This document shows, one piece after another, positions 9,801-43,118 of a DNA stretch of 64,000 nt (positions are counted from its first letter, which is position 1; each line of letters begins with the position of its first letter). Source of the DNA: Raillietiella orientalis (lineage: Eukaryota); the NCBI GenBank assembly GCA_036172245.1, contig JAYWIR010000004.1:1116001-1180000 (forward strand), written 5' to 3'. The translations under genes and the position numbers were made by a program. The notes under the pieces were generated by a model. The model was given only the letters and a program-made list of their open reading frames with translations. It had not been told where the DNA came from and did no database searches.

Positions 9801-10748
9801 CAACCTGTAGAAGCACTGTTGATTAGCCCACATATTCTCTTATGGTCCCTAAGAACAAGACTAACCAAATAGGACCAACTCTTATCTGCATGCTGTGCAC
9901 CGATGTTGTTGTGTGGCAACTTAAATTATGGCAATGTAATGCCCAGTTTGAATGATGTTACTACCAGACAATTGCTGGTTTCCAATACCTTCGCTTTCAA
10001 AAATTTCGAATGACAAGAAAGCAAGAATTACAGGAACCAGCAGGAATTACAGCACCAAAAGGAACGCTTGAAGGAACAGCATCCAGCCGTTGCAACAAAA
10101 TTCTGAGCTTCCTGCAACATTTTTTACAAATGCAAACAATCTTTGATGTAGGATATTTTCCACAGCTGAAACTTCATCCTCATTGCTTAGCTTCATGGCT
10201 GACAGCAACTTGGAGATACAATTGCCTATTAACACTTCAAAGGGAGTCTAATAAGTGAACAGAAATGAGTTAGCAATTCATTACGGAAATCTCTTTTACT
10301 TTTCGGTATTGACTGAAGTGGACTGAAAGACAGAGAGGAAGCAGACATCAAGTTGGCAACGTACTGTCCAAGTATTTGATTCTCTGACTTGAGTTTCAGA
10401 TTTTCTTTTCTTACATTATGTACTTTCTGGGAGAAATCTGCAAAAGAGCAGTTTGAAAGGATAGAAATGGATACATTTGAACAAGACTATCCAAAGTTTT
10501 CTAGAACTCCAGTACTTATGAAATGAAGCGCACCTTCTCTTCATTTTCATCAGCACTGATGTCTTGATCTGCATCTAACAAGTAAACCACAAATGTACGT
10601 GATTATTATGTGACGACGTCGAAATTCTTCCAAATTCTGGATATGTCATGTTTGAGCTGGAAAGTGAACCAGCTAATGAAAGTTTTTTCCTTGCACTCCC
10701 CCATTAGCTCTGTCCAGCAGTAGAGTTGATAGCGGTGACTTCTCCTCA

Positions 10749-13880: not shown

Positions 13881-14148
13881 TGATCCCTCCCGAAGCGTGA
13901 GAAGAACAGACTCTCTTCTCCGGAGCCCTTACGGATTCATAGGGTGGTTCGCTCGTGGGATGTCCCCTATCTTGAAGAATTACACGCATCTTCGGGTAGT
14001 GTGGAAGCGTGTTAAAGGCTCTGAACCGCCTGGCGCCCGGCGCTTCTTGCGGTACTCGGCGAACCAAAAAAGGAAAACCTGAAAAAAAAAACGCTGGAAG
14101 GAAAGCAGAGAAGACAGTGAAGAGCCCAAAAGGATTTCCATCATCAGA
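13881..14148 (+). mobile_element. Partial (3' body) copy of the hairpin-rich SINE family
   Basis: gatccctcc..aagcgtgaga..gaac.gactc, cccctatc.tgaagaattacacgc, ggtact..gcgaaccaaaaaa and gctggaaggaaa match 46145-46460 and 28290-28545. Confidence 0.8.
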
Positions 14149-17100: not shown

Positions 17101-18129
17101 GGTGCCTTCTCCTGTCCTTCGTTGCACTTTCGGCGCTTTAGAAAGCTCTCAGCTTCCGGCTGCTGCTGCCGCTCTGCTTCCTCTGTGAGCCTCCCAATGT
17201 AGTTCTCGCGCGCCAATACATGTGCACGTGTATGCACGCGTTCCATCGCATAACGAGTCGTGCGGCCGTGTCCCTCTCACGATTGTCAGCTCCCAGTGAA
17301 AGAGTTGAATGCTGTTGAATGCCATCGTTTCATGCTGTGCACTTTCGTTGGGAAAAAGAAACCTGCCGCTGTCGAGATGGCTGTCGTTGAGGCAAGGAGG
17401 ATACGACGTCATCCCAGCTGCTGACGACTAGTCTCTGATCTACCAAAAAGCAGTCTTCTGGATCCCTGCCGTTGACCAACATCCCTTGGATGGACCGTTT
17501 CGTAAGTCGAGCGACGCTGCCCCGCAGGTTCTGGAGCCTCGCCACTGCCTTCGCGGACTTCCCCACTACCTTGGTTCGAGCGCCATATGGATGAAGAGGA
17601 GCTATTCAGGGAGGTGTAGCAGGAGACAGCAAGGACCGCGAAAGCTGCAGTGAGGGCTACTTGCTCCTAAATCTTCAAGAGGGGTGCTGACGTCACTTTC
17701 AGTGTGCTCGGGACACAGGCCACGAAAGGACGAAGCAGCGCTAGCTGGCGAAGGGGATCGACGTGGCGGGTGGAACCGAAACGGAAGAAGAAGATGAGAA
17801 TCTCGCATAAGAGATGCAGGAGTAATCGCTTTTCTCAGAATCTTCGTGGAGAGGGAACGCTCGCTCCTGACTCGCAGAGTCCGCGTCCGTCCATCACCGT
17901 TCCGTCGCCAGACCCGGCTCTTTCCATGGGGACGAAACCCCTCGGGGCGGAGGACGCCGAAAAGTGGAGCTTCCCTGCGATGGACAACGGCGACGCCTTC
18001 CCCGACGGCGCTCTTTCTGCGCGGGGCGGATTCATCGCGCGTCCACCAACGTGTCTCGCAGGATGCCCGAGAAGCGCCGCTCCAAGAAGGAACGTTTGCT
18101 CTCACTCTCCCTGACTCTCCCTGGACTCG

Positions 18130-21100
18130 CCTGTCGCCGTAGGATCCTCGTAGCCTGCTGGAACGTCAACGGGCTGCGCGACGACGGCAACAGGCGGACA
18201 CCCTGCGTGACTTCGATCTGGCGCTCCTGCAGGAGATCCACGTGATCACCGCGGAGAACCCCCAGGAGATCGAGAGGATCGCAGGGGGTCGTCTGTTTAT
18301 CACCCGGGTGCGCCGGGCGTTTATTAAAAACTATCCGGGAACAGAGTTCCTGGACAAAGGAAAGACAAGAGACGAAGGGGGTGGGATCCCCGACACGCAG
18401 GTCGGTATGCCGAAAGTCCGGAACGGGAGGGAGGGGACCACAAATACACTACTATAAAAAATAAAAATAAAAATATGGTGGGCAGGGGACAGGGGTCTTT
18501 GATGAGTCCGTTCCTTCCTTTCAAAACCGGCGATGGATGCCGGCGATCTCTCTCCTTACGTCCTGTGGCAGACATGGGCCCACTCGGCAGCCGACGACAT
18601 GCTTGCGCTGGCTAATCCGGTGGACTGACGAACGATGGCCAGCTTCTCCAACTCTCGGTGGGCCTTGTCGATGGCGCGGGTGCAACACACGGCTGCAACG
18701 ACAGCACCTAAAGACAGGCCGCCTGGCGTGAAGAAGCGGCGCATCAAGTCCCTCGCGGTGTCCCCCTGGTGCAGGAGAGCTGAGGCCAGTCTCCGCCAAA
18801 GTCCTAGAAGGACACCGCAGTCCAGGAGCAGGTGCGGGAGCGTTTCCACTTCCCAGCACCGCTTACAGTTTGGGGAGACAACTCCCCCGGAAACACGGTT
18901 CGTCCGCTGGTTGGAGTGAAAACCCCAATGCAACAGCATGATGACGTCCTGCTTCCACGAAAGGGGGAACACAGAAGTGTTCAAACAGGAGGGAGGGACC
19001 ACAAGTTCTTCGGGGGGCACACTCAAGTGTTCACTCCACCGAAGGAGTCCCTTCGAGTTGTGGCGAGGCGTGGCTGCGTCTGCCAGCTCGCAAGTCCTCC
19101 AGCTGCCAATAGGTCGTGTTGTTCCTGCAATTGTGCAGGCGACCTCCCATCTCGCCGGTTCGCAGCTGTCATCTCTTGCCCTGAGGGGGTCGTCTGTATT
19201 GGCAATGCGGTGCTCGCAACACCTGTGGCGTCGCGTTTTTTATGAAGCCAGCGGTCGCCGCCTTCGTCAAGGACGTACGCTTCGACAAGGACAGTCGGGT
19301 TGGCCAGCTCATCCTTAGGTGGTCCGACCCGATCGACCTTGTCGTGACGAATGTGTACGCTCCGAGCGAAGGATGCGGGTACGGGGAACGTTCCCGGTTC
19401 CTCGAAACCCTGAAGCGCGACTGGCTGGCGGATACAAACGTACGCAAGGCACATCTGATCGGTGTGGATTTCAACATCCGCCTGCTCTCAGGTGTGCCTT
19501 GCGGGCAAAAAGACACAGCCAACGAGTTGTGCGCTGCTATGCGCACGCGCAACTTGTTGGGGGACCTACCAGGAATGGTCTAAAGCGTAGACCACGTCTT
19601 CCTTGACGCCGACCTGTGCCCACGGGTCGGCAGACGAGGGAAACTTCCGTCGACGCTATCGGACCACTTCCGGTTGATAATCGAGATTATGCCACGCGAC
19701 AAAGGACCACCATCCAGGGCGTGGCGTATGCCGGGGGACTGGATGCGCATCTCAGGTGCGGCGGAACATCTCCGCCAATTCCTGAGAGGCGTCATCCTCT
19801 GCAATCTTGAAGACTGGGACCGCATGAAGGTCTCGGTCCGCGAGTTCTGCGAGAAGTTCCCTCTGCACCGCCTGCCCCGGGGATTTGGTGAAGGGACCCG
19901 CAACAAAAGAGCGTATTTGCACGCCCGTCGTTTCGCAAGGACCCCTAACGTCCGTCGCTTGGCCGAATACAAAGCCGGGGCCGAGCGTCAAGCCTGGCAA
20001 ACCGGGCCGCCCGGCGTTCTGGACGACTTGGACCAGGAACACTCGGACCCGGCTTCGATACGTCGCCTCGTGCGGGGATTTTACTCCTCCCTTTACGCCA
20101 GGGCACCTGCGGAGTGGGACGCCTCGCGGCGCTTGCTCCCAGATGGAACCCTGGCCATAGGGGAGGAGGAGAAAGAAAGCCTTGACGAGCCTTTTACGAG
20201 CGGTGAAATCATCACCGCGATTAAAAGGCTCAAAAGGCGTAAGGCGCCAGGGAAGGACGACCTGCCGGCGGAGTTCTTTCAGTGATTCGCTGCAGAGCTG
20301 ACCCCCCTGGTGCTTAAATTGACACGGCTGATCCGAGACCAAGGCGATGTTCCCGCCTCGTTTCGGTAAGCCAGAGTGAGGCTCCTTCCTAAGGGAGGAG
20401 ACCTCAGGAAATTAAGCAACTGGCGTCCGATCACGATTGTGAACACGGACGCCAAGTTGCTGGCTGGACTGTGGGCTGCGCGGCTAAGACAGGTAGCTGA
20501 CAGCTTCATCAGCCCGGAACAGACGTACGCTGTTCCCGGGCGAAGCATGGAAGCGAACCTGTTCTTCGCCAGCACATGGTTCCATGTGCAACGCGAAGAG
20601 AAAAAGGAAAAAGAACGGAATGTCGGCAAACCTGATTTGGGGGCGCCAGCGCGGCAAGTAAGGGACGACCGGGATGGGAAGGGGGCTCTAGCGATCGCAG
20701 TCGATCTGCACAAAACGTTCGATTGCGTAGACCAGGATCTCCTTCTGGAGCTCCTGGATCGCATGGGCTTCCCGGACACCTTAACGGCCTACCTGCGCGC
20801 CTGCTGGCGCAATGCGATCATCAACTTGTTTCTCAGAGGACAGCAGGTGTTCGGTGTGCCGGTGAGGCGCAGCATCCGGCAGGGCAACAGCCTGAGTCAC
20901 CTGCTCTTTAGCACCTATTTCGAACTGGTGCTGAGAGCATACAGGGTGACATTGGCTGCCCTGCCAAACTCGTGTCCAGGTACGCCGGCCGTGTCGGCGT
21001 ATGCTGACGATCTTTTGCTCCTGCTGCCCATGTCCGCCCCGGCTTCGGCAGTCGAGGATTTCTTCGACTTGCTTAGCCGTGGGACAGGACTACGGGTGAA

Positions 21101-22793
21101 CAGGACGAAGTCGTCGCTGGTTGCGGTTGGTGCAACGTGGGCAGGACGACCTGATTGGATCCGCCTGGGGATTCCCACGGAGAGGTACTTGAAATACCTC
21201 GGCGTTCCGTTGGGGGACTTCTGCCAGTCAGGAGCCTGGTCAGGTCGTCTCCAAAAAGTGGAGTCAGCGATCGGCCCGTTCCTGGAAGGCAAGCTTCACT
21301 TGCAGGAACGGGCGGCGGCGTGGAACGCGTTCGCGGCCCCCCTCCTTCGCCCCTTGCTTTTCATTTGCCCCGTACCCCATGAATTGAAAAAAAGAACAAA
21401 GGACCTACGCATCGCCTTGTGGGCGGCGGGAGGCCTCGTGTGCCTTTAAAGGATTTGTGCGCTCCACGTCGGGACGGAGGTCTTAGAGTCCTGACGATGG
21501 AGCGATTGGAAACACAGCTGAGGTGGCGTACTCTAGCCATCGCAGCGAAGATGTGGAACACCCCTTGGTGCGTTCCAGCCCGCCTTCTCGCCAGATGTGT
21601 GTCCGGGACTGAAGGACTCGCGTCTTTTCTTCTGTGCTCCGGCCGGAAAATAAGAAGATGCGGACTTCTCCTGGGACGCATGGCCACCCTGGCAAAGGAG
21701 AACGGGTGGATGGCCTGCAGCCCCGCCAACTCCAGTGCATGGCTGGAAGAAACAGTTGAAACGTGGGCAAAGTTAAAAGACATCAGTGGAGAATCCTGCA
21801 ACCGCCTGCGTACCGGCATCTACACCCGCTGCACGCTGCGGAACATGATCGTGTGTCCCGCCAGAAGCACTTGGGCGGAGACGACCCCACTGGCCACGGC
21901 GGTGCCCTTCCTACGAAGGGCGCTTCAAAACAGCCGGAAGCCGAGATGGCAAGTCTCCTGCCGAATCGCAGGCAGAAAGAAGTTGATCAGCGGCTGGACC
22001 ATGGGAGAGCTGGCAGACGCCACGACCCCAAGCGTTCACCCGCATGGAATACGGAGATGGAGCGAGCTGCTTGGCATCCAGGCGGATGACCTAGAGTGGC
22101 CCCCGTTATTTAGAGACGCATTTACCTTCCCCCTCAAGTGGCAGGAAACGGCGCTGTTTTTGTTGCACTGGGGTCTTCCCTGCAACGCGCGCCGTCACTA
22201 CTGAACGTTGGGGAACGTGGGACAGAACTGTGCAGTGTGCGAGGAGAAGGAACCCCTCCCCCATCTGTTAGTGGACTGCGCTGCCCTCCGGCCCTTGTGG
22301 GAACGTTATGCTACGACCCTCCCTATGCCGGTCGGCAGTACCCCCAGAGACGTCTGAGACTCCTCTTCGTGCGAGACGCCCTGCCACCAGCCTCAACCCT
22401 GGCAGCGCTCTACTGCCTCCGAGGGACTGTGGCCTCCTGGAGCGCAGCCAACAGAGGAAGCAGCGACAGGGACCCCATCGTACACGCGGGTCGCTACCTG
22501 CGAATCGCGATCGGTTGGTCCCATCTGGGAATTATGACGAGGGACCTCGAGGGCATCCTGGAAAGGATGGTCTCCTCCTCCAGCGGACAGTGATCCCTTC
22601 CCGGCCCTCCAAATAGTTTCTTTTTAATTACTTCATTTATTTTTCTTTTTGTTTTACCCCCTATCCCCTCCGCTGCCGAGGAGAGACAAGCCGGCCTCAG
22701 AACCGGCTTCCTGTCAGGTCCCATGAAATATTGGCCGTAGCGGGGCCTAGTACCGCAAATGTAAAGTGTTTAGAAATAAACGCCCCGGCGTGA
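18130..22793 (+). mobile_element. Decayed L1/Tx1-like non-LTR retrotransposon A (APE endonuclease, RT, C-terminal Zn finger, structured 3' tail)
   Basis: APE motifs WNVNGL, LLQE, VYAP, G(V)DFN, DHVF and SDH. RT motifs KAPGKDDLPAEFF, WRPITIVNTDAKLL, DLHKTFD, RQGNSLSHLLF, YADD and YLKYLG. Several stops and frameshifts are present. Interrupted at 18297-19183. Confidence 0.92.
18297..19183 (-). mobile_element. 5'-truncated antisense LINE copy nested in the endonuclease of element A, with a 14-bp TSD
   Basis: agggggtcgtctgt at both 18283-18296 and 19184-19197. The insert encodes LLHWG...CKRCWEVETLPHLLLDC (zf-RVT-like) on the minus strand and ends ...aataaacgcccggcgcacccgggtgataa. Confidence 0.9.
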
Positions 22794-24999
22794 CCGATTG
22801 AAAACTACCTGATCCAACGTTTCACGCTCCGAGCGGGCATGCGGAGGTGGACGCAGCGGCACCGTTTGTCCCGAGCTCGTTCCCTTCCTGCAGTCGATTC
22901 CAAAGCGCCCACGAAGCCCTGAGACGGTGAAGGTCAACGGCGCTTGCAGATTGGTAGCAACAACAGCCAGAGCACCTTTTGTTGTCTGCCCCCCGCGTCT
23001 CCTTGTAGCGCTCCAAGGTAGCGTCCTGTGGGGACTTCTGACAGACCATTGCCGCACTCCAGAAGGGATGGTGCATCAGACCAGGCTTCGCCCGTCCAGC
23101 GCAGCAGTCAGCTCGCGGGGACTTTTCCCGGTCCCACCACACAACATAAACACGCGAGCGGGATCGAGGTAACCGTTGTTTCAGTGACGCAAGCACTCTC
23201 TCAAGGCCTTAAGGAAGATCGAATTGTCGTGCACACAGTCTTTGAGATCATCGAGTCTTTGAGAGCCGGAAGTGCCGGTTGGCGTATCGCGTTCGGTACT
23301 GCTCGGCGCGAGCGTTCATCCGCTGCCTAGCACCTCGGAAAAGAAGGCCACAGGGCGTGGTCGAAGCCACAGCCTCGAAGTTCACCAGCAGCGAAGCCGC
23401 AGGACTCGTACCGGAGTGTCACGAAATCTGAGCCATGCAACCGGATCGTTCGGAGCAGCCAGCATTCCTGGAGAGTTCCGCGCCCTCCACTGGCGCCCTG
23501 CTCCGCACAAGATGGCTCTGCTACACGCTCGGCGGCGACGCACAAGGCGAAAAAAAAAATGGGACGACTTCTCTCTAAGCCAAACCTAGGCAGGGGGGTG
23601 ATGGCTTGGGTAAGTGTGCCAGCCTCCATCCGTGAGAGGGCCGCAAGAGTCACACGGATTCGGCCGCGGACTGAAGGGTATCTGCTTCCCGCTACATCAA
23701 GGACAGAGAGGATGAGCCGCACGCGCTGGCGCTGCGCCCCTCGCGCTGGTCTGCCAGAGAAACGCCGTAGCGACACAAGAAGACACTACCTGATGCGAGG
23801 CAGGAGAGCGGCGCCACGATGATCATCACCCAGTGGAGTGGCATGTCGCCCGAGAAAGATGAGCGATTCGGCAGCTGCGCGCCACGTATGTATGCGCGCC
23901 GGTCGCTTCTCAGCCCCGCGTGCTACAACAGGGGCAGTGTTCACGGCTCGTCTCCGTCCTCTTCTACCGTATCCTCCAATACGGAGATGCAGTCGGGATT
24001 CATCGCTCGTTTTCCGGATCTCAAGACCAAGATCCGAAGTTCCCCACTCAAGGCGGAATTCCAATCCACAGAGAACCCGAGGGCATCCGAGACAACCGGA
24101 TAGCTCCCGTTTTTGGGGCACGAGCCGCGTCAGCAGCGAGGGGTCCTCACCGCTTGCATGGATTCCATCCCGGGCTGGAGAGAGTCGAACGGCTGCGCGC
24201 CGTTCCAGCGAGGCGGTGGTGGTCATGCTCCGCTGCGACAGCCGATGTCGCCTTTAGGCCGCAAAGAGAGAAGAACGCTTCCTCCATCGGAAAAGAAACT
24301 CGCGCAAGGAAATGCAACCCTCGACATCCGCAGCCTCGAAGCCTCTGCGGCTCTCCCTCCCAGTGCAAGATAGGAGGGCGCGGCGGGATGGCACTCGCCC
24401 AGTTCGCCGGTGCGCTCCTCCATCCAGGAGCGCGAGATGAAGATCTCACGCGCCTGACGATGTGCGTGGGCTCGTTTGCAGGGACCCGAAGGGTCCAACA
24501 ATCCGTCTATGAGTCTCCTCCGACAGCCCCGCACGGTGGTCTCAAGCAGATGTGTGCGGCTCTAGCGTTCGCCGGGAGGAGCCCTCGCGAACAAGTGAAA
24601 TGGTGCGCCGAACGTACCTCGGCGGGATCTTCTTCTAGAAAGGGGAGGTGCATGCTCGGCCTTGGTGCGGGCGTTGTAATCCCTGCTGCACTCGATTTTG
24701 CTCATCTGTCAATGCAGCGAACTCCTCCCAGGCGCCCGACGTCGGGCCCTCCCCCTAGAGTGCGGGTTCCCGGGAAGGCCTTCCTCCTCTCTTGCCCTTC
24801 GGTAAAAACTGCCGGAGGCCACCTCTCATGGAACATACGTTCGCAACCTCCAATGCGATCCCAGTCTCTCGCTGCGTAGATGCAGCATCGAGCTAGAAAG
24901 TTCCGGATGGTCGCAGCAGCTACGTTTGCCCCTCTCCCCCAGCCGGCGCCCTTATTGGGAAATGGCGTGGAATACCGAAAAACAGTCATCGGGAAGGAA

Positions 25000-25345
25000 A
25001 AGGAAAAAGTCTTTTATTCGTAGTGGAAATGTCACTCTCACCTTCAGCGTCCCCGATAGAGGGATTTCTGCACACTCCCTCGCAGGGACAGGTGAGAGGA
25101 GTGTGAAGAATGAAAAGAAACAACCAAATGAAATAGCTGCTTTCCGAGCTAAAAGGGGGAAGGGAAGGAGGGAACTAGGAAAAGGGGAGAATCATAGCAG
25201 ATTCCCTGGCGTTCTCTTCATCCTCGCCAGGACACTGGCGAGTTCCTCCTTGAGGGTCGTTGGGCACGGCAACCTCCGTCGCGACCCTCACGGAAGAAAT
25301 GACTGTCGAAGCGGCTTCCTTCCTATTCTGATCCCTTCCCCGGGC
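25000..25345 (-). mobile_element. Antisense 3' fragment of a related LINE
   Basis: The minus strand encodes LKEELASVLARMKRTP, like KQELANILTRMQKTP at the end of element C. It is followed by a pyrimidine-rich tract and a tccc-tgcga-ggga hairpin. Boundaries are approximate. Confidence 0.6.
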
Positions 25346-25347
25346 AG

Positions 25348-27255
25348 TTTAGCACCTACTTTGAGTTGGTGCTGAGAGCGTATAGGGTGACTTTAGCCCC
25401 CTTGCCGAGCTCGTGCCCCGGCACGCCCGCCGTTGCAGCCTATGCCGACGATCTTCTGCTCCTGTTACCTATGTCCACCCCGGCGAAGGCGGTCGGAGAT
25501 TTCTTAGACCTGCTCAGCCGCGGGACCGGACTGCAGGTGAACATGGCGAAGTCGTCGGTGGTGCCAGTTGGTGCAGCGTGGGCAAGGCAGCAGGACTGGG
25601 TCCGTTCTGGGATCCCCACAGCCAGGTGCTTCAAGTACCTTGGTGTGCCGTTGGGGGACTATTCCCCTGCGGAAGCGTGGTCCAGCTGCCTCCAAAAGGT
25701 TGAGACGGCAATCGGCCCGTTCCTGGCCGCGGTTTGGAACGCATTTGCGGCCCCCATCCTCCGCCCTTTGATTTTTGTGTGCCCCGCCTCCAGAGAATGC
25801 AAAAACAGGAGAAAGGACCTCCTACGTATCGCCCTTTGTGGCAAGGGGAGGCCCCGAGTCCCTCTGAAGGACTTGTGCGCTCCGCGTCGGGACGGCGGTC
25901 TTGGCCTCCTGACGCTGAAGCGCGTGGAAATCCAGCTGCGATGGCGCACCCTCGCCATCGCAGCGAAGATGTGGAGCACCCCTTGGTTCATTCCGGCTCG
26001 CCTCCTTGCCAGTCGTGTGCCCCGATGCGAAGGACTCGCGTCTTTTCTTCTGTGCTCCGGCCGGAAGATCCGAAGATGCGGCCTACTGCTCGGGCTCATG
26101 GCAATCCTGGAGAAGGAGAACAGCTGGATGATTTGAAGCTCCGCCAACTCCTCCGCCTGGCTGAAGGAGACTGCTGGCACCTGGGCTAAGCTACACCAGA
26201 GAAGTGAAGACCTCATGAATTGCCTTCGTGTCGGCCCATACGCCCGCCGCACCCTGCGGGAAATACTTGAATTTCCCGCGGGTTGCACGTGGGCAGAGAC
26301 GACCCTCCTTGCTACGGCGATGCCCTACCTCCGGAGGGCGCTTAGCGGCAGCCAGAAGCCGAGGTGGCAAGTCTCCTGCCGAATCGCAGGCAGGGACAAG
26401 ATGTTAAGCGGCTGGACCACAGGAGAACTGGCGGACGCCACTACACCGAGCGTCCAGCCGAGAGCACTTTTGCGATGGGGCGAGCTGCTCGCCATCCCCA
26501 TGGATGTGCTGAAGTGGCCCCCGGTGTTGTTTGAATCAAGGATCCTGTCCCTTAAGTGGCAAGAATCGGCGCTGCTACTGTTGCATTGGGGTTTACCCTG
26601 CAACGCACGCCGCTTCCACTGGACAAGGGGAGCGGTGGATCCTCATTGTGCCAGGTGCGGAGAGCGGGAATCGCTGTCCCACCTACTTGTTGACTGTGCT
26701 GCCCTCCGTCCCCTCTTGGAATGGTTCGGGACGACCCTCGGTCTCCCTGTGGGCAGCCAACCCAGCGACGTTCTCCGTCTTCTCTTCGTTCGGGACGCCC
26801 TTCAGCCAGCTGCAGCCGTGGCAGCACTCTGCTGTATTCGAGGCATCGTGGCGGCCTGGAGCGATACCAGCGAGGAGATGGTGGATTCAAACGCGATGGC
26901 TGTCATCCCATATGCTGTTCGCTTCCTGCGGAGAGCTATTGGATGGCCCCAGCTGGGAAGACTGAAGACGGACCTCGAGGGTATCCTGATAAGGATGGAC
27001 CCTCCTCAAAGTGGACCGTGATCCCTTCCCTTCCCTCCAATAACTCTTTTTTTTTTTTTTTTCTTTGTTTTCTGGTTTATTTTTCTTTTTGTTTTTCCGC
27101 CCATCCCCTTCCACTGCCGAGGAGAGTCACACCGGGCTGCGTCCCGGTGTCCGGGCAGGTCCGGCATTAAGTGGCCGTTAGTGGGGCCTTGTACCACATA
27201 CTGTAATGACGAGTGAAACGTTTTTTTTAATAAACGTCCCGGAGTACCCGGGTGG
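25348..27255 (+). mobile_element. 5'-truncated L1/Tx1-like element B (RT C-terminal half, zf-RVT, structured 3' tail)
   Basis: YADDLLLLLPM, FKYLGVPLG and CARCGERESLSHLLVDC. Collinear with element A from about 20908. The tail is aataaacgtcccggagtacccgggtgg. Confidence 0.9.
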
Positions 27256-27311
27256 CATCCCCGAGCAGTTTCGGGCACCATCATGTCACGGAATAAGCAG
27301 AGAGCTGGTTT

Positions 27312-27560
27312 GGCACCCGGTTTCTCCGGGGAGTTTATTTATATAAAAAATAAACATATAGGTCGTGCAGAGGAGAGCTGAGCGGACGTCGCAGCAGGCG
27401 ACATTCTTTTCTGGGTGAGCTGTGTCCATGGAGTTCTTCGGGATACGCAGGATTGTGGGAAGGAGTGCCCACACACTCCGGAGACCTGCGCCCCACCTTA
27501 CTAACAGGTGCAGGAAGGACTCCGCTCCCCATACACCATGGGAATTTGGGAGCACACTTT
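27312..27560 (-). mobile_element. Antisense LINE 3' fragment lying tail-to-tail with element B
   Basis: The minus strand carries a gtcgc-ctgct-gcgac hairpin, then aataaactccccggagaaaccgggtgcc. Confidence 0.6.
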
Positions 27561-27718: not shown

Positions 27719-28599
27719 CTGGTGTTAGAGGGTCCATGACTGTGGTCTCTGAAAGCGGCACTAAGAGTTGCCGGTTCGAATCCACCCTTGAAGGATCGAC
27801 GTCGATAAACGGGTACGTCGTTGGTTTGAGTTCCTCCTTCAAGATGACACTGGTCGGCTTTTATTCATTCGGATGCTGCACTGGTAGCGGTTAAAAGCGG
27901 ATGAACTGATGAATAGCCAGGAGTGGGAGTCGACCTCCGGGTCCTTCCAGGAAAAAGAATCAACGAGTGAGAGTTCCTTCCTGTTGTGCAAAGGATCGAA
28001 CCCACGAAGTCCGTTTTCTACCATGGAGTAGGTGTGTTACCTCTCCAGAGTGCAAGGAAGTGTGCCGCTCCCTCCAGGGAGCCCCCTTCGGAATTTCGGA
28101 AGCATGCCTTCGGGTTCTCTTCAGAGGAGGAGTAAACAGGAGCGGTTCCCTTGCGGATTCCCCCCAAAAAAGAAAAATGAAGGGGAACCCTCCGGGAGTC
28201 CTTCCGAAGAGAACAAGGAAGGAGACTCCCTTCGGATTTCCCCTCGGAGACAACCAGGGTGGTGGAGGTTCCCTTCGGGGATTTCTCCCCAGGAGTGAGA
28301 GGAACGGACTCCCTTCTCCAGAGCGCTTCCTGGATTCATAGGTTGGTCCCTTCCGGGGGCAGCCCCTATCATGAAGAATTCCACGCACTTACGGGTGGCG
28401 TGGAACAGCTGTGTGATCCGCCATGCGCGCGACGACTCTTGAGGTACTCAGAGAACCAATAAACAAGAAAACTCCCACCCAGCCCTCCCCAAAAAAGCTG
28501 TAAAGGAAGCAGCGAAGCCACAAAAGATCCCCAAACAATTTCCATTATCCTAGGCCAGTAGTAACGATCTCCTCGTGGAGTCACTACTGGCCTTTTTTT
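27718..28599 (+). mobile_element. tRNA-headed hairpin-rich SINE, copy 1
   Basis: B box ggttcgaatcc at about 27773. The body is homologous to 45615-46508. It ends in the stem aggccagtagt...actactggcct followed by a T run. The 5' boundary is approximate. Confidence 0.75.
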
Positions 28600-28639
28600 A
28601 GGTTGGTTTCTCTGGGATTTCTTCTTTTTGGCAACAAGC

Positions 28640-29860
28640 GAACCCTCGCGTCGCCACCTCCCTCGCTTCAGCTCCTTCCTCTCTTTGGAAGAGAAGCGAC
28701 GGTTGTCATTCGTGGAAATTCTGCCGCCCAACTTTAATGCTTGGCAGAGGGAGACTGTTGAATCCTGGGCTGCAGTACAGGGAATGCGCCCTCAAGATCT
28801 TCACTTCCTGAGACATCTATTGCCATGACCACTGGAAGTGGTGATATAGGACGCGGCGAGGCATTCTGCTCCGACCGCCACCCCCCTTGCGGCAGCTCTG
28901 TATGCTCTCAAGGAAAGAGAAGACAGTAGCCTACTGGGGAGGTGGAAGCGTTCCTGCACTATCGTGGGAACTCCAAAACTCTTGGGTGGCTGGAAGGCGC
29001 GCGAGTAGGCAGATGCAGCCACTCCACAAACAGCTGCTGCGGGACTTCTTCGGTGGTGCGAACTGTCGAGTGTTGCTCCCAAAGAACTAATGGTCTCCTC
29101 AAACTGCGTGAACGCATCATTGTTTTCACTGAGTTGGAAACAGGACGTGCTGCTCTTTGTGCACTAGGGATTCCAGTACAACGAGCGGTGGCACCGAGTT
29201 TCCGGAGGGTTTGCTTCCCCTAACTGTGCCAGTTCCCCCTACTTATGGAATGCGGTGCCCTCCAAAGGCTGTCTGGCCGGCAGCAGCATTCCTGCACCAG
29301 GAGGACACCGCTCGAGATGTGCTGCGAAAGTTCTTCGCACCGAAGGACTCATGACTGGCGCGGTGATGGCAACCACGGGTTGCATTCGCGCCATTGTCAC
29401 AGCCCGAAATGTGCTGCAGGCTACCGCGAAAGGATGTCACCACCATGGCAGCCGTCTATCAGCGCGACTGCAAGGAGGCATCACTTGGACGAAGAGACAA
29501 AGGCGATCACCGGCATAGAGCGCCGATTTGAGAATGGTTAGGAACGTTCGAGTCCGGGGTCCCTGGTCCGTTGCCCTTCTTTCTTCCTTTATTTTTTTCA
29601 TTCCCTATCCCTGTTCGTTTCGCAATTTTTCCCGGTGTTTTTTTTTTTCCTTTGCATCCCAGTGCGTGCGGTGCGAATCCAATGATCCCTGCCCCATCCC
29701 ACCCAATCATATTTATTTTGGTTGCCCTCTTGTCCCTCCTCCGTTCCGAACTTTCCGTTTTTCCGGTCTGCGTGCCAATAGACCCTCTTCTTTATTTCTT
29801 GTAGTCTTCGGTTATGAACTTTGTTCCCATTTTACAAAAAAATAAATGCCCCGGCGTGAT
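28640..29860 (+). mobile_element. Decayed LINE 3' portion, same subfamily as the 18297-19183 insert
   Basis: FLHQEDTARDVLRKFFAP matches LLHQGDTARDLMRRFFTP. The 3' UTR is similar and ends aataaatgccccggcgtga. Confidence 0.75.
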
Positions 29861-29863
29861 TAG

Positions 29864-32800
29864 GTGAAAAATTTCAATCTCCGCCTGCTATCGGGTGCGC
29901 CGAACGGACAGCACAACCTGGTGAACGAGGCGTGGACGTTCGTGCATGCGCGCAACTTGTTAGCTGTAGAGACCGGGATAGAGGACAGCATCGACCACGT
30001 CTTCCTCGAAAACCATATGTACGCAGGTGGGAAGATGATGCTGGGTGCAGTCGAAGCTGTCGGACCATCCAGGTTGGATCTGGAAATTCGGCCACACGAC
30101 AGGAATCCCTCGAATAATGCGTGGAGTCTACCAAAGGACTGGTTTAGCCTCCCGAGAGCTGCGGAGCATCTCCGCGAGTTCTTGTGAGACTTCGTTCTTC
30201 CAGCGTTCGGAATCTAGATTCTCAACCGGGTGCGCCGGGGTGTTTATTTTCTCGAAGAAAAATTTTACATCTCGAATCTGTGGCTGGACCAGTAATACAG
30301 CCACGCGCTAGATGTGCAAAACCTGCCAGGTCACCGGTTCGCAGACCGGTGTGGTTCACCGCAGCTGCAAAGGGGAGGGGTCACAAACAATAAGAAAAAT
30401 GAAAATGAAAAATAAATAAAAGAACTGGGGAGGGCATGAGAAGGGATCACAGCCTGCTGGGAGGGTCCGGTCACATCCTCTGGAGGATGCCGGCAAGCTC
30501 TTTCTGTATGTTGACTTCCAGGTGGGGCCATCGCGTCGCTATCTTCAGGAAGCGGACGGCATATTCGCTGCCATCCCTATCGCTGGGTCCTCCTGTCGCG
30601 TTGCCACATGCAGCGACGATCCCACGTAGACAGCACAAGGCTGCAAGGGAGGCCGCTGTCCGAAGCGCGTCATGAACAAAGAGGGGTGAGGGATCTCGAG
30701 GACTGGGACCTGTTGAAACGCTCAGTCCGCGAGTTCTGCGAACAGTTCCCGATGCACCGTCTTCCCGCAGGATTCGGAGAAGGCGTGAGGAACGAGAGAT
30801 CGTACCTCTACGCCATTCACTTCTCCTCCGTCTGGAGACTAGGGGAACATCGAGAGGGGGTCAGGCGTCAAGCCTGGCAGTTGGGGTTGGCCATCCTGCT
30901 CGATGATCAGGGCCAGGAACATCCGGATAAGTAAGACGCATCGTGAGCAGATTTTACTTCTCCCTGTACGCAAAGGCACCCTACGAGCAGCAAAGCTGCG
31001 GAGCGTCTGCTTCCCGATGGGGTGCCTGCGTTAGGGGAGGAGCAACGGAACAGCCTCGAAGAGGAACAGCCTTTACTATGACGAAGATCATTGCCATCTG
31101 AAAGCTCAGGAGACGCAAAGCACCAGGAGAGGACGGCCTGCCCGCGGAGCTTCACTAATGCTTCGCAGCAGAACTGGTCTTCTTTGTACAAACTGCATGC
31201 TGACCCGCAAACGAGATATTCCCGACTCGTTTCGATTAGCTAGAGTACTTCCCCTCCTCAAGGAAGAAGACCTTCGCAGAATTGGCAACTGGCATCTTAT
31301 CACAGTGGTGAATGCGAATCAGAAGCAGCTTGCCAAACTGTAGGCAGAGCAACTGGTCGGGTGGACGGGTGACCGAATCCGTGAACAGTCTGGAGCAGAC
31401 GTTCGCTATTCAGGGACGATTCATGGGGGTTCACCTGTTCTTTGCGAGCACATGGTGGCAGTTGCAAACAAGGGTTGCGTCGGCGGGTCACGAGAATCCA
31501 GGATTCTCCTCCTGCCGGAGATGGGAAGGTCACGAAAGTACACCTGGAGCCCTTGAAGTCGCGATCGATTTGCATAAAGCTTTCGACTGCATCGACCAGG
31601 AACTTCCTCTGGAGGGATCTCCTGGAACTCATAGGATTCCCGGCCGTATTCCTGGTCTATCTGCACTCCTGCCGGCTCAATGCAATAATTAACATCTTTT
31701 TTAACGGTTGACTCGCGTATGGCGTGCCCGTTCGCCGCGGCGTAAAGCAGGGCGACGGCTTGAGCCCCCTGCTCTTCAGCATCTACTTCGAGTTGGTGCA
31801 TACAGGGAGACTCTGGTAACCCAGCATAGCCCATGTCCGGGAACGCCTGTCGTGTCGGCTTATGTTGACGATTTGCTGCTGCTTCTCCCCATGTGCACTC
31901 CGGCATGAGCGATCGGAGTTTGCTTTGAGTTGCTTAGCCTCAGGATAGGACTGCAGGTGAGCAGGGCGAAGTGCCAACTGATCGGACAGAATCCACTTGG
32001 CGAACCTCACGAGCGAGTACATCATGCACCTTGGTGTTCCCTGGAGGAATTTCTACGTAGCGGAAGCCTTGTCCAGCCGTCTTCAGAAAGTGGAAATGGC
32101 GCTTGGTCCGTTCCAAAACGGGAGGTTCTACTTCCTGGAACAAGCCACGGTGTGGAACGCGTTCGCGACCTTCCTTCTCCTCCCCTTGATTTTGTTTGCC
32201 CTGTTTCTGTGGCCATTCAAAGAAGGACCGACGACCTCCTCAGAAAATCCCTGTAGGGCAAATGGAGGTTCAGAGTCCGTTTAAAAGACCTCTGTGCTCC
32301 TCGTAGGGATGGTGGACTGGGTCTCCTTACTCTGGAGCGGATGGAGCGACAGCTCCGATTCCGCAGACTCGCCCTCGCATCCAAGCTCTGGACTGCACTT
32401 GGTGCTCACCGGCAAGAATCCTCGCCAAACAGCAAGCCAGCTCCTAAGGACCGACCTCGGTCGTCGTGGCCACCGAGAGGAGTCTGGGCCACTCGGTCCC
32501 CAGCTCCGAAACATGGTTGCCTTCGTGCAAAAGTACCCCTAGATCTCCGTCCTCCCCGCGAACTGTACTGTCTAGCTGCAGGAATCAGTTTCCTCTTGGG
32601 TAGAAATCAACAGCACGGGAGAAGCAGAGTAGATCTGCCTTAGGAACAGCAGATGTGATCGTCAGTCGTTATAGGAGATCCTGGGAAACACCAGGAATCT
32701 GCTTTGGGCGTCGTTTCAGTTGTTCCGGTACCCTTTTCCCAGTGCTGCCCTCCCTTAGAGGACAGCCATATTCCATCGAGGTGGGAAGTAACATATCAAA

Positions 32801-33590
32801 TACAAAACAAGAACAACAGAGTGCATGGACAACTCGGTAGCTGACGGACACTGCCACACTGAGGGTCCCACCCGAAGGACTGCTACGCTAGGGAGAGCTA
32901 CTACAAATTCCTCCGAATGAGGTACAGTGCCGCCAGCGTGCTACCCTCCCCTTAAAGTAACAGGATTCGGAGATCCTGCTGCTGCATTGGGGCCTCCCTT
33001 GCAACGTCTGTCGACACAACTAGACCCGGGGGAGGGCGAGCCCGAACTGCGGCAGGTGCAGAGAGCGAGAGGCGCTCTCTCACCTGCTCATGGATTGTGT
33101 CGCCCTCCGTCCCATGTGGGAATTCTTTTCCGCGTCCTTGTGGACCTCCAAGCACAACTCCAGAGAAGTTTTAAAGCGCCTCTTGCTGCGCGACGCCCTC
33201 ATGCCGGCCGCATCAGCAGCCCTTTGCTGCCTACGCGGGATCGTGGCTGCACGGAGTAACGCCAGAGGTCAGAACGACAGGGACGCCATCTATTTTTCTG
33301 TCCTTTTCGTGAGGATAGCGTGAAGATGCCTTCATCTGGGAATCTTGAAACAGGAACTTGCCAACATCCTTACAAGGATGCAGAAGACGCCCTCCAGTAA
33401 ACAGCGATTCCCTCTCGAACCCTCCAAAGTTCTCGTCTGTTTTCTTTTTTGTTTTATTTGTATTTTTGTTTACCTTCCTTTTCCTTTTTCTTCTGAGACG
33501 GACCTCGCCGGTCTACTTGCCGGTTCTCAACAGGTCCTTTTTCTATATCTATGTAACGTATGTTAATTTTTCTATAAATACAGCCTCGTC
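29864..33590 (+). mobile_element. Heavily decayed L1/Tx1-like element C (end of APE, RT, zf-RVT)
   Basis: FNLRLLSG, IDHVFL, AAEHLREFL, LEDWD, IDLHKAFD, KQGDGLSPLLF, YVDDLLLLLPM and HLLMDC are collinear with element A. Many stops and frameshifts. Confidence 0.85.
30220..30690 (-). mobile_element. Antisense LINE 3' fragment nested in element C
   Basis: The host frame AAEHLREFL...DLEDWD is split here. The minus strand encodes the C-terminal ALCCLRGIVAA segment, then an accggt-ctgcga-accggt hairpin and aataaacaccccggcgcacccggttg. No clear TSD. Confidence 0.75.
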
Positions 33591-36354
33591 AAAATCGTGT
33601 GTCAACCAGGACGGCGGGAGTCTCGATGTACACGGCGACCTTCGTTCGGTGGTCCACGCTCCCGCGTACAGCACGCGAGTCGGAGGAAGCGGCGGCGCCA
33701 CGCACGCACCCAGCCACAAGCTCCGTGACGCGATGACATCCACATCCGCCTGCTACGAGACGACCGTCGGCACAGAGGCAGCGGCTGACACAACAGGAAC
33801 CAGGGGGTCGCACGCGGATGGGCGGTGGACAGCCTACTGGCTAGCGAACACGGGGTGCGTGATTCCGCCAAACGAACACGCGGATGGGCGGAACATCTGG
33901 AAAGCGATCGGCTGCGTCCTACGGCCAAACAAGGCCGAGAGGGGTAACTCCGCCTCCGGGGAAAGGCGAATCCGCTCCGCAACTCCCTCCGTGGCACTGC
34001 CATCGCAGCTACCTCCATGGTCACGTCCACCGCGCCCAGCGCTGCTTGCCTCGAAGCAACGACGTGGCATCTGCTGTCCCCCTTGGCAACCGAGGTGCGA
34101 GGAGGCAGTCGGAAGGCGCGCTTTCTCCTCCGGGAGCTGCCAGTCGTGCCACTCTGAGTACAAGCCACGCTGGACTGCAGTGCGTTCAGCAGCGACGCAG
34201 ACTCAGCACAGGAGGTCGCCTACGGGGAAGCAAACAACGAACTCCGCTGCAGCACACGCCCAGGAGACTGGGCAGCTTCTCCCAAGACAACTGGTGGCCC
34301 CTCCGAGCACACCCTCAGAACCAGCCGACCACGGCGTACGCAAGCGCCAGCCGACGAGAACTGGCACGCCCGGCGCCCAGATCGCAACAGCCTCCGAAGA
34401 GCGCGCTTACCAACAACATGCAAATGATCCTTCCTGCTTATGTCAAGGGCCATAAAGCACAAGACTTTTGACGTCAATGTAGGCTGGTCACGGGATCAGA
34501 CCGTGATGAGAACTTCCATGGGAACCCCGCATTGCTACAAAATACTTTTCCGAGGAGCACTGAGAACGGTATCGTCGGAAGACATTCCCTGCTGACACCG
34601 CGAGATTCCGTTCCGGGGTCCCCACTTTCCGCAGTCCTTACAAAGACTCCTGTGGATCCCCGTGGCAGCATTGCGCATCCACGTTCTCGTCCGAAACGGA
34701 AAAAGCGCCGGCTGCCCTCAGCAGACGAGTAGGGAGACGGCGCTCTCACGGACGCGCTCTTCCGGCCGCACGCAAACCTCCCCGCGCTTTGCAGAGGACT
34801 CTTGAGACGATCTGCGACGGTGCTGCCACTGCTAATTACCCATTCAATGCCGAGTGCGAGTCGCAACACACAACGCTGCTAACGATACAGAAATTCATGA
34901 GTGCCCTCAGAGCACGTAATTGACTTTGGGATCCGCTCTGCGGGTCAGGTGTGCAGCACGCGTTAAAGGAGCGCGCGGCTTGAAACAAGACCGTGCTGCC
35001 TTCGGTGCCAACGAGAAGGAACGATGGGACTATCGCATGTTCTCTGGCTGGTGAGTGCTCCTTCCTGTCCCCCAGGGTGGCGGAGGACCCCGCTCTGCAC
35101 GCAAAGATCGCAGTTCCTCACAGACAGAAGAGGGAAGGTGCGGCTGCAGGGGAATCTTTTTGTCTTGCAGATCACCGCCTTGCTGCCCGCCCAGCACATG
35201 CATGCGGCAGCTCTTGCCCGGACGGCGACGGGGGGATGGAAAAGCCGTTTCGAGGTGAGCATGCCTGCGCGACCTCCTCACCACGTTTCGCCCCCAAGCG
35301 GAATGCCGCTTCCCCTTCAATCAAAAAAAATTCTCCTCCCATGGGCAACTCCGAACTTCGTTTTCCCGCACCTCACTCGGACGAACTCCTCGCCCTCCCG
35401 TGGCCACTAGCAAGGAGGACGAGTTCCCGACGCGAACGGAGGATGTACTCCTCTTGGTCTTCCTTTCGGTTGGGAAAACGGCGGATGCGCGCCTCAGAGA
35501 CCGCCCAGCAACGCCTCACCATGTCCAGTGCCAAGCAGGCCCATGGGGACCGGCACGAGAAAGTCTGGAGGGCCCCTCGTTCCGCGGATCACAAGTCCAC
35601 ACGTTGCCCCCTCCGTATGGGGCTTTGAGCAAAAATTCCTGCGAGCGGCCCTCAACAGCCTTCCTATGGTGCCCTCCTCTCCCCCCGCTCACCCCACACC
35701 GGGATTCCGTTTGTTCGATCGCAACAGCGGCAATGGAAAGCAGCAGCGAAGAGCTTCCTGCCTCCGATGCCGCGCTTCCGCTTTCCCCGTCTTCCTCAGA
35801 CCGGCGACTTCCTCGCTGCAGCGCTCATCCCCGAGCATTGCAACCGGCTCACCGATCAGTCCTCCCCCTTTCCAGAAGCCATTGCGCAGCGCAAGCGTAG
35901 GTGGACTTTGCGAGTCTTTGCGCTAAAGACGCCGGGCGCTGACCACGGATCTGCACCGCGAGGAACAGCAACCTTCGAGCGCTCCCGACGCCGCAAGTGT
36001 CCAACGGACTGAGAAGTCTCCGTGAGGAATCCTCATCACGTTTTCTACAAGGCAACTCGTCTGCCAAGACCCGTACTCACGTGTGATACGGTTGCACGTG
36101 CCATGTGAGCGCACCTCCGTGAGCGCATCCCAGCGTTACTTGCTAGGGACGCAATCCAATCTGTCTCGTGGGACGCGCCTTTTCCGTAACCCCTCGATTT
36201 TCCCCGCACCCGATGCTGCTCTCCGAACCTTTGAGCGGACCGAAGCCGAAGGATGACGCGATGCACTCGACGACATCCTTCTGCGACCGTCTCCGTGTCC
36301 ACGATCTTCAGCTTCCGTCCCGACGCACTCTCAGAGCGCCCGTTTCCGTTTCAG

Positions 36355-39300: not shown

Positions 39301-42173
39301 TGGCAGGAGGGATCCACTTCACCATTGAGGAAGATTCAAAGCCGCACAGTTGCCATGAGAGGCGCTTCGATGCAACAAGGAGAGTGCTCCAAGTTCAGGG
39401 TAGAAAGTGCCTTCCTTTCCACCATATTACAAGGAGAGCTTACGGTAACACCCACGGAACAAAGTGATCTTCGCTTCCAACAACCACTTGCACGAAAAGT
39501 GGTCAACGGGAACGTCTCAGATTGAATCACACGGAAGAAAACTCGATGAACCAGAGTTTGTTTCTCACCTCTAGCCATGCGTCTTTCGCCCAGCAACTTC
39601 GAGTCAGCACGCAAGATCTTAGCTATCGACCCTTTTCCTCCGCAAACCCCCAAATTCGTAACGAGAGACTAAAAAGCTCCGAATCTGTGCAGGATCTGCT
39701 CTTTGGCCTTGCCGTCAAGCTTTGCAATCCTTGCCCACGACGACTTCACACGGTGGTGGTGGGCTACACCTGAGGCGCATCTTCTCGTCTTCTACATAGC
39801 AGGCAGCGCACCAAAATCATCTGTTTGAATCCATGAATGTGCGAAATCCCGGAAGCTGTCTCCGTCTATGCATCACACACACTCCATGAACACTGCTTCA
39901 GCGACATCAAGAAGCGGCTAAGAAACCCAGGGAAGATCCACCCCTAGCAACCGCGTGTGTGCCTTGCACTCGAGCCGACACATCCGAAACTTCCGCCCCG
40001 ACGCGTCCCTTGGCTAACAGCGCGCTCTCCAGTTTGATCGACAGAGCACCCACGTTTCGCAGCTGCACACGAAGATCTTCGCGGAAAATGGGTTTTGGAG
40101 ATTTACTTGGACATGCGCTTTCTTTCGCCCTCATATCAGTTTGGCGAGTCGCCCTCCGGCTGTCTGTCACCTTGAAAAAAGTCTCCAGAATTGACAGAAA
40201 GCGCGTGATGAATAGTTTGTCGGGGCTCTCCACTGCAACACGGGATGTTTTTCAGGAGACTGGATGAGCGCATGCAACTTGACCTCCAACCCTTGCTTCA
40301 ACGACGGTTTCATCAATCAGTACTGTCAGTGCACCTGTAAACCCACATTTGGAGGGAGCGTATGCAAGGAACCCATTCAGCCCATCGGTAAGCATTGGGA
40401 AGTTGTGCACCCTGGTTTTCTATTTCCTCCTCGTCATTCGGTGTTGGCACCGGAGTCCCACGCTCAGACCTCGCGCATTTTGCAACCCTCTTGGCGCTCT
40501 CACGTGGCGTGCTCTACGATCACTTGTCGATGATGCGATCCAAGGATTCTCAAGCAGTCATCCGAAGAGGCAGAGAACTTGCTGTGAATACGTGGACGTC
40601 ATCCAGATGACCTCTGCAGGGTCTCTTGTTTTTCTTCCTCCCTGGGCACTGACGGACGCTCTCCGTCTTCGCAAAGCACCTCAAGCTTGTCTTCGAAGGT
40701 TTCGAGAGCGGAAGACCCCAAGGAGGACACGGAATGTCTCGTTCCCCTTCAGTCCGCGATCTCCCACCTGTCGCAGCTGGCGCTCTGTGAGGCACGAGAC
40801 TCCTATTCCCAAAGAGCAGGAGCGATTTGCTCAGGAGGGAAGAGGGCCACACGGAGACGCAGCCCAGCACCTGGAGCAGCTCGCGCGATTCTCACGGCCT
40901 TCTGGTGCTGTGCGCCCCCTCCCTCCAACGGAATCACTTGCGTCTTCTGAGAGCTCCAGAAGTCAGCCGGCCTCTGGCCTGCTGCGGTTCCCTCGATCTT
41001 CTACCATGGCGAGCGCATTCCATTCTCGAGAATGGAACGGATCGCTCTGATTGCCGATTTTCGTTCTCTCTAAGGATTGGTTGCTGGGATGGCCATCGAT
41101 TCCTGTTGCGGGATGCCGATCGAAACCCGCACTCCTCAGGAGCTGTGCATCAGCGACCGATGAGCTGCTTCTTCGCAGACTAGCATGATCTCCCCATCCT
41201 GCATAGAACTTTGCTCCCGGATCACTTCGTGCCTTAATGGGTCGCTCCACAATTCCCAACGTGAAAAACCAAACAGGAAGGAACCTCCGAAAACAGGAGA
41301 CAAGCTGCTCGTGTGCCCTTTGAGAGGACATCTTGGCACAGCCCCCCGAACAGCCGCGTACCTACGAGCACCGACAGAACGATTTCCGTCTGATGGTCTC
41401 GAGAACTCAACCGTAGGAGCAGCCAAGAAATTTACGATCAGGTGCTGAGGTTCTCAACTGGGCGATGCTTTGCTGCGACCTCCTGCCAGATCGCTCCATC
41501 GAATTACGAGGAACGGGTTTCCGGCTTCCAGATCGAGTTTGCGATTCGGTTCTTGAATGTTCCCGTCGCATCCGGCCACCTCCAGCCTCTTGCGTTTGCA
41601 TGGTCTTCTTCAGGCACGCTCGTTTGCTTTAGCGTTTCCGAAATCCGCAAGAACCACTTAGACGAAACTCCTCCATCAATATGTCCACAGCCAGTTGCCA
41701 TGGATCGAAACCGGTAGCGACAAGAGTTGATGCACATTTCTTGTGTCCATAGGGATGACTCCCAGCATTTGCGGAGGCAACGTCACACAAGAGGGAACCC
41801 TGGTTTCACCTCAATGGCCAAAAAGTCTTACTTGCATCTGGGTAATAACTGCACCCAGAAACAAATGCGTGAAACTCGTCTTCACCACTTTGTACCTCGA
41901 AAGTAAAAACTGCATGTACGAGTCGGTTTTTGTGCAGCAGAAAGACATCCACAATGGAACTGCGTGAGTAGTTCCGTTCCGCCGCAGGCTTCCACCATCT
42001 GCATTGTCTTCTTGCATAGATTCTGCAACGCTGACCAGCTGCCCCCAGGAAGCGAGTTTGTTTCTCAGGATGAACAGATGGTCGTGATATGGAAAAATAT
42101 TGGACACTCCCAATCAAAAGTCGAAGCAGTCATCAGCTTCGTCCCTCGGCAAATTCCCGTGCATGCGAAATGA
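36355..42173 (+). CDS. Astacin-family (nas-like) zinc metalloprotease with EGF and CUB domains; exons about 36355-36529, 36836-37038, 37328-37522, 38460-38590, 40255-40387, 41753-41963, 42020-42173; first exon(s) not located
   Basis: Pro-region HEGDIVLT, then WTCIRF, GCWSLIGK, the Zn motif HELAHAIGSQHEHSRSDRD, the Met-turn YDYYSIMHY and GLTFNDALVINKKYGC, followed by EGF and CUB exons with canonical splice sites. Confidence 0.9.
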
Positions 42174-42896: not shown

Positions 42897-43118
42897 GGAA
42901 TGAAATCTTCTAGCAGGAGCAAATCCTGGATGCCATCTCGACAGCTTACAACTGAATCCCGTCAATCACGGAATAGGTAAAACAACAAAGATTCGAGAGT
43001 TGTTTGAAAACGTACAAACAAGAAAAGGACGCATTAAGCAGAACATGTGGAATCGAAAACATGCGTACATGAATCGGTCATGAAATCAAAGAATGCCGAT
43101 TGTTCTCAGGGAAGTACG
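42896..43118 (+). pseudogene. Inverted remnant of the NOB1 3' end and downstream sequence
   Basis: Reverse complement of about 4596-4819; for example catgaaatcaaagaatgccgattgttctcagggaagtacg matches 4596-4635. Confidence 0.9.

Follow-up and report, generated by a model that had tools for sequence, protein, structure and literature searches.

Recognition of a structured 3′ tail is a principle known from L2, R2, and SART1 elements. As described for the L2 clade in the available text of two studies, ZfL2-1 and ZfL2-2 from zebrafish and UnaL2 from eel combine a bulged stem with a specific, family-dependent loop in their 3′ UTR (PMC4176376, PMC1636434), and ZfL2 ORF2 binds both the stem and the loop of its 3′ tail with family-specific recognition of the loop (PMC4176376). 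The LINEs of Raillietiella orientalis described here resemble this arrangement, yet their ORF2 is closest to L1 and they lack short tandem repeats at their ends; tail binding, as shown for L2 elements, is what we infer for them.

Within the L1 clade itself, Ohshima proposed that monocot LINEs (the LINE1-1_ZM group, “monocot 1a”) and L1-1_CR of Chlamydomonas are of the stringent type (PMC3747384). The accessible part of that study describes a conserved hairpin at the 3′ end, with a loop that is kept and a stem that has undergone compensatory changes, which is interpreted as stringent recognition; we find the same combination in Raillietiella. However, the plant and algal elements are described there as ending mostly in poly(A), sharing their tail with SINEs and carrying a UCU loop, whereas the Raillietiella LINE has no poly(A), at least 3 hairpins, a CUNNGN loop, and an animal host. 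The short copies that we see are 5′-truncated insertions. Stringency of the ancestral L1-clade elements is put forward in the same source as an open proposal built on few plant and algal cases (PMC3747384). The original prediction for our locus, a stem-loop for reverse transcriptase recognition in an L1-like lineage, had set it against mammalian L1 as an element without such recognition; this contrast is weaker than assumed, given the hairpin proposed for monocot L1 (PMC3747384) and a stringent 3′ hairpin claimed computationally for human L1 (PMC5135761, as far as its accessible text goes).

A third group for comparison is the Tx1 clade, whose target-specific members include Tx1L (inserting into Tx1D), Tx1-Mar (into Mariner-N4_AMi), Keno, Kibi, and Koshi, so that targeting of other transposons by Tx1 elements is known (PMC4494074, available portion). 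Like these, our element has an L1-related ORF2 and prefers another repeat as target, which differs for each family; unlike what is described there, the targets are coding motifs of sibling LINEs, one per family, alongside many dispersed insertions. Our literature search, conducted mostly outside of subscription papers and Repbase, turned up neither this tail nor LINE families that target sibling LINE genes. A conserved 3′ hairpin in the L1 clade is already described for monocots, and what we add is a poly(A)-less tail in an animal and the sibling-gene targets.

The 3′ tail and its carriers

The window, i.e., the whole stretch of 64,000 nucleotides analyzed here, comes from a genome assembly of 210 Mb in 491 contigs and carries host genes such as BBS7 and NOB1 besides a nested pile of LINE fragments at about 18 to 45 kb, which has further copies elsewhere on the same contig. 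The best named relatives of BBS7 come from arthropods and share 39% to 46% identity. It also contains a segmental duplication (18-3298 and 8859-10653 versus 39714-42896 and 44943-47838; 87% to 95% identity) including an astacin-like gene region as judged by eye, and a separate repeat with shared frames and no Pfam match adjoins LINE fragments at 13882-14145, 27811-28600, and 45618-46510.

The copy on which the original prediction centered (all features on the plus strand) consists of a stop-broken, 5′-truncated ORF2 from the end of the RT to the C-terminal CCHC region (25351-27021) and a tail of about 150 nt. After the ORF2 stop, a U-rich and then C-rich tract that recurs in other copies opens the 3′ UTR module (27045-27113). 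It is followed by the hairpin H1, an upper stem with a CUGCGU hexaloop (27129-27150, loop 27137-27142) that is backed by a covariance model match and covariation and sits within a predicted lower stem with a purine-rich 5′ bulge (27114-27158, pairing 27114-27119 with 27153-27158), which is conserved in sequence and absent from some families. Next come a second hairpin of family-specific sequence, H2 (27173-27197), the polyadenylation-signal-like hexamer AATAAA (27229-27234), a terminal hairpin with a CCCGG-N5-CCGGG core, near-invariant stem, and family-specific pentaloop (27235-27254), and 4 bases that end the element without poly(A) (27255-27258). The 3′ copy of the target-site duplication lies at 27259-27271 and differs by one mismatch from the 5′ copy at 25338-25350.

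H2 has a GTGG/CCAC stem here and in 35 of 47 pattern-matching copies, GCGG/CCGC in another 11, and a mismatch in one. A candidate H-type pseudoknot can be drawn in H2 through two GGCC tetramers in families A, D, E, and F (27173-27197, and 22737 onward); one of its helices covaries, and the GGCC helix never varies. A short stem able to bury AAUAAA (27218-27237) is a weak feature, with at least 5 pairs in 52% of 284 ends versus 34% (maximum 39%) after shuffling of the upstream 30 nt.

Across these 284 ends, AA occupies positions +3/+4 in 227. Searching for target duplications of at least 11 bases up to 1.5 kb upstream recovered 79 (one of them a tandem artefact) versus 9 in the control; 73 of the 79 measure 11 to 15 bp, and since 77 extend only 0 to 1 base into the tail, the element ends at a constant distance from the terminal hairpin. 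Tandem or back-to-back 3′ ends occur at loci L107 (two 3′ modules 121 nt apart), L076, L080, and L125, and contig C20 has three spaced repeats of a terminal piece.

Nine sites in the window had been put forward as versions of the hairpin, six of them with quoted strings. All six strings are present, with correct coordinates for 27129-27150, 50907-50922, and, on the minus strand, 30332-30351, 25076-25088, and 27386-27404; the one with a CUGCG-type loop placed at 18380-18395 lies at 18390-18405 (minus strand) instead. To a covariance model derived from 76 copies in the genome (including those at 30333 and 18390 and close relatives of 27129 and 22689), the top seven matches in the window are seven of these nine sites, with E ≤ 6e-6 for 30333, 27129, 22689, 18390, and 33508 and about 0.08 for 29763 and 50907. 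Seven sites are therefore H1 homologues and two are not, the model reporting neither 25076 nor 27389 in the window at E ≤ 10. The former lacks both a nearby ORF2 match and the terminal motif, its region is limited to 4 local copies on a single contig, and an AATAAA follows about 60 nt downstream of the stable long hairpin (25050-25120, minus strand; z −3.87) in which it falls. The pentaloop at 27389 lies outside the approximately 61 nt that its insertion has in common with other copies. The proposed check against Rfam came back empty at gathering score in the window, and 27020-27450 gave two chance matches only, at E 6 and 10.

Among the homologous modules, that of family B (30223-30376, minus strand; H1 at 30332-30351 with a CUGCGA loop) lies antisense in the ORF2 linker of another copy. 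The family C module (18297-18432, minus strand; H1 at 18390-18405) is homologous to that at 27129 and belongs to an insertion of about 880 nt, antisense in the endonuclease region of a large element (18120-22800), with its 5′ duplication near 19184-19199. Three modules on the plus strand are degenerate: 22664-22804 (stem 22688-22709, degenerate loop) downstream of ORF2 at 19185-22617; 29735-29870 (loop 29768-29773, E 0.078), after which codons for the endonuclease GDFN motif of another copy follow; and 33481-33605 downstream of ORF2 at 30931-33404, with decayed AATAAA and terminal hairpin. At 50907-51017 (plus strand, E 0.082), a very short 5′-truncated copy of family F begins at H1; its target duplication was read by eye and was not recovered by the scripted search. 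Another short insertion (27310-27364, minus strand) comprises only AATAAA, the terminal hairpin, and the 4 bases, with the 27389 pentaloop located beyond it, and a further 3′ UTR at 43089-43340 (minus strand) keeps the pyrimidine tract and the 5′ arm of H1 before it is interrupted.

For the coding part of these elements, we chose 20 of 140 RT matches by a long open frame around the RT, disregarding the UTR; these long-ORF2 copies belong to three related families, and two of them are duplicates. Their ORF2 of about 1200 aa matches the Pfam families Exo_endo_phos (APE endonuclease), RVT_1, and, weakly, zf-RVT (the C-terminal CCHC region), and many of the 20 have a separate ORF1 with CCHC knuckles, a fold known to bind structured RNA, upstream of ORF2. 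Among the matches of ORF2, only L1 and R2 have solved structures, and human L1 ORF2p is the closer of these (E 7e-50 versus 2e-15 for R2), in agreement with the L1-like lineage that had been proposed. Two unnamed fragments share 70% to 74% identity with it, the nearest of the other sequence clusters reach 39% at most, and homologue searches with ORF2 returned no named Tx1 reference among the matches. The elements have the 5′ truncations and target-site duplications of non-LTR retrotransposons. They lack the poly(A) tail of mammalian-type (relaxed) L1, with no A-run longer than 4 in the next 20 nt at 274 of 284 ends, and also the terminal short tandem repeats of the L2 clade, as 4 bases directly precede the target. 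The target-sequence preference of the Tx1 clade is present in the form of family-specific first duplication bases and hot spots in sibling ORFs. Judged by its sequence, this is an L1/Tx1-like two-ORF LINE that is fairly isolated, and we leave L1 and Tx1 undivided. Many of the copies with long open ORF2 are found on small contigs or less than 100 kb from contig starts in dense nested arrays, possibly in heterochromatic or subtelomeric locations.

Conservation and loss of H1

Exact matches of the terminal motif (AATAAA plus GC hairpin) number 1527 in the genome, and a reversed control gave none; 8 metagenome loci with this motif, none of them with an ORF2 match, were judged to be chance occurrences. 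At every true site, H1 lies about 70 to 110 nt upstream of the terminal motif. When H1 was sought upstream of 90 of the first 100 terminal-motif matches listed (three of the ten omitted loci were already part of the collection and the other seven mostly had the commonest loop), the exact CTGCG loop on at least 5 pairs was found at 38 loci versus a mean of 0.47 (maximum 3) in shuffles, and with one mismatch in the loop at 57 versus 7.9 (maximum 17). At the same 90 loci, upstream control windows gave 3 and 0 and the reverse strand 0. All 20 long-ORF2 copies keep the six H1 pairs (counting G-U) and 19 have the CTGCG loop; the absence from intact young copies that would have refuted the original prediction is therefore not observed.

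For covariation analysis, 224 ends were reduced to 201 anchored and 87 non-redundant ones, 11 of which were dropped before alignment for misanchoring, 5′ truncation, or stem indels. In the resulting alignment of 76 copies, RNAalifold predicts exactly six H1 pairs with two-sided changes at each, and the closing pair is U-A in 40 copies, C-G in 26, and G-C in 3. The covariation score is 0.312 versus 0.208 for shuffles (0 of 500 reaching it) and 0.055 to 0.132 for slid partners. Tested with an R-scape-like null model on a tree, the closing pair comes out on top of all 1891 column pairs (E 0.026); two further stem pairs reach p values of 0.005 and 0.017 that are lost after multiple-testing correction, and no lower-stem pair is significant. 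On a tree of ORF2 coding sequences (187 copies, or 173 after removal of 14 pentaloop copies with a shifted anchor), Watson-Crick double changes on the same branch add up to 21.8 over the six pairs (closing pair 9, fourth pair 6), a total that never exceeded 11 in 100,000 random six-pair sets of complementary columns. The anchor pattern used both arms and thereby favors paired copies at the four inner pairs, not at the closing pair. In folding energy, the 3′ ends do not stand out (z +0.32 to −1.93). The larger alignment therefore bears out that the stem changes in sequence while pairing is kept: The six-pair stem is maintained through repeated compensatory changes, and the hairpin is real, covarying, and more than a chance occurrence. 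Its best interpretation is an RNA structure that selection maintains in the 3′ UTR of these LINEs.

The loop had been described as nearly fixed, which holds for the clades of the window (CTGCGH in 111 of 173 copies) and fails in deeper families, where the stem is retained with CUUUGG, CUUUGC, CUUAGC, or CUACCG loops or a CUAGC/AUAGC pentaloop. C1, U2, and G5 are kept in most hexaloops and occupy the same register as in the epsilon RNA of hepatitis B virus, whose CUGUGC hexaloop is described in the consulted part of PMC10534774 as a C-G-closed pseudo-triloop on an RT-bound stem-bulge-stem. By analogy, the H1 loop may possibly fold as a C1-G5 pseudo-triloop. This pair shows no covariation on the ORF2 tree, and the analogy is one of shape, epsilon being part of an unrelated element, 5′ located, and used for protein priming. 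In a single copy (L008, C38:1030019-1030415), the loop is exactly inverted between unchanged arms; this state was found in 1 of 284 ends and is the majority in no family.

One family, CL4 (at least 40 matches), has H1 in 0 of 20 fetched copies: The 5′ arm is kept, and a pyrimidine run replaces the loop and 3′ arm. These copies follow ORF2 and retain AAUAAA, the terminal hairpin (by which most loci had been selected), the exact end, and normal duplications, and the family has been amplified. For CL4 copies (L291-L310, L154, L166, L188, L191, and L194), RNAalifold suggests a different long-range fold. Among the features of stringent LINEs, we find the conserved 3′ stem-loop with compensatory changes, whereas the presence of the stem-loop in every amplified family does not hold for H1 owing to CL4.

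Insertion targets in sibling LINEs

The first bases of the target duplication are characteristic of each family (CGCC for A, TCGA for B, ACAG for C, CNAG for D, and AC for J), and the bases upstream of the duplication are biased by family as well (C at −3 in 10 of 10 for A and C at −4 in 16 of 22 for C). Downstream flanks match LINE ORF1 or ORF2 at 84 of 284 ends, and these matches are clustered. The hot spots in ORF2 are antisense and lie near residue 80 for family C (12 of 12), residue 504 for D (9 of 11), residue 312 for A (6 of 11), and residue 284 for B (5 of 8), with other hot spots in ORF1 for E (5 of 5) and at the endonuclease GDFN motif for G (4 of 5). Families were assigned by short signatures, in some cases wrongly, and part of the repeats may have arisen by segmental duplication. 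In family D, the site is common to copies of different lengths with their own duplications. Examples of hot-spot insertions into sibling LINEs within the window are found at 18297-19199, 29870, and 30223-30629. The families thus insert at their own hot spots within conserved coding motifs of sibling LINEs, mostly in antisense orientation.

Target choice is probably made by the endonuclease and not by RNA. Loops of the L1 endonuclease alter its specificity according to the available text of PMC1950540, and the endonucleases of families E and F, which are 87% to 92% identical, show differences that include the loop following the YAP motif (12 of the 20 copies could be extracted for this comparison, one of them frameshifted). 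RNA-guided targeting by a read-through tail is disfavored because the family bias includes bases upstream of the duplication, which read-through RNA does not hold.

Role of the tail

We narrowly favor a mechanism analogous to that of stringent LINEs, in which ORF2p would pick its template through the structured tail of about 150 nt. The terminal hairpin would be the common anchor that sets the start of reverse transcription, and H1 would add a recognition surface whose loop varies among deep families and which can be lost. Arguing for tail recognition are the fixed end, the enrichment of H1, the retention of its six pairs, and covariation under tree control. Against a role of H1 stand the amplification of CL4 without it, the different loops of deep families, its location about 70 to 110 nt from the end, to which the terminal hairpin is closer, the ordinary folding energies of the 3′ ends, and the fact that only one pair passes the multiple-testing threshold. 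H1 is neither the whole signal nor the best candidate for its core, because CL4, which does without it, still has AAUAAA, the terminal hairpin, and a precise end.

A less likely explanation, which still deserves serious weight, is that H1 is real and serves 3′-end processing, RNA stability or export, translation, or packaging by ORF1p, while ORF2p recognizes the terminal hairpin alone. The covariation data are all just as compatible with this reading, and the success of CL4 without H1, the conserved AAUAAA partly buried in a stem, and the CCHC knuckles of ORF1 support it. What speaks for template recognition instead is that the position of H1 and its pattern of conserved loop and variable stem match the tags of stringent LINEs as described in the consulted parts of PMC3747384 and PMC4176376.

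It appears improbable that the H1 loop pairs with the loop of the terminal hairpin in a kissing interaction that closes the tail into one fold. Complementary loops exist in families B and C (UGCG/CGCA) and H (UUUG/CAAA), but mismatches are found in families J, CL6, and CL8, the L233/L234 group, and copies of A with an AGUAC loop, and none of the four positions shows a double change on the same branch. We similarly give little credence to the idea that the compensatory changes arose when DNA synthesis switched templates between short inverted repeats, with selection on RNA contributing little. Loop inversions and clustered stem changes have been ascribed to this process (PMC8794818, available text), and besides the inverted loop of L008, copies L016 and L024 carry several stem changes together; yet the inversion is confined to one end, departures at the family level are mostly G-U, and loop sequence and position persist across families with differing flanking UTRs. 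Template switching may also supply changes that selection then keeps. A self-cleaving ribozyme that produces the poly(A)-less end is highly implausible, since the hammerhead-core-like run before AAUAAA in family A is a resemblance by eye (as are twister and HDV-like readings) that other families lack, and, despite the precise end without poly(A), Rfam had no match in the window that reached gathering score and, for 27020-27450, none with E below 6.

Template selection through the tail, our preferred reading, could be extended to a two-part code, which we regard as rather unlikely: The terminal hairpin would act as a universal ruler in place of poly(A) and the H1 loop as a family tag co-evolving with ORF2p. 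If true, this code and the family-specific endonucleases would together let LINE families that compete within one genome distinguish self from non-self. Independently of this, more than 1500 ends from many families make up a large natural alignment of an L1-group element that is apparently copied from a structured, poly(A)-less end, and they add an animal example in which covariation was assessed against a tree, loops vary naturally, and one family exists without the hairpin. If our interpretation is correct, an L1-type RT combining strict template choice with family-specific DNA targets would be relevant to site-specific insertion.
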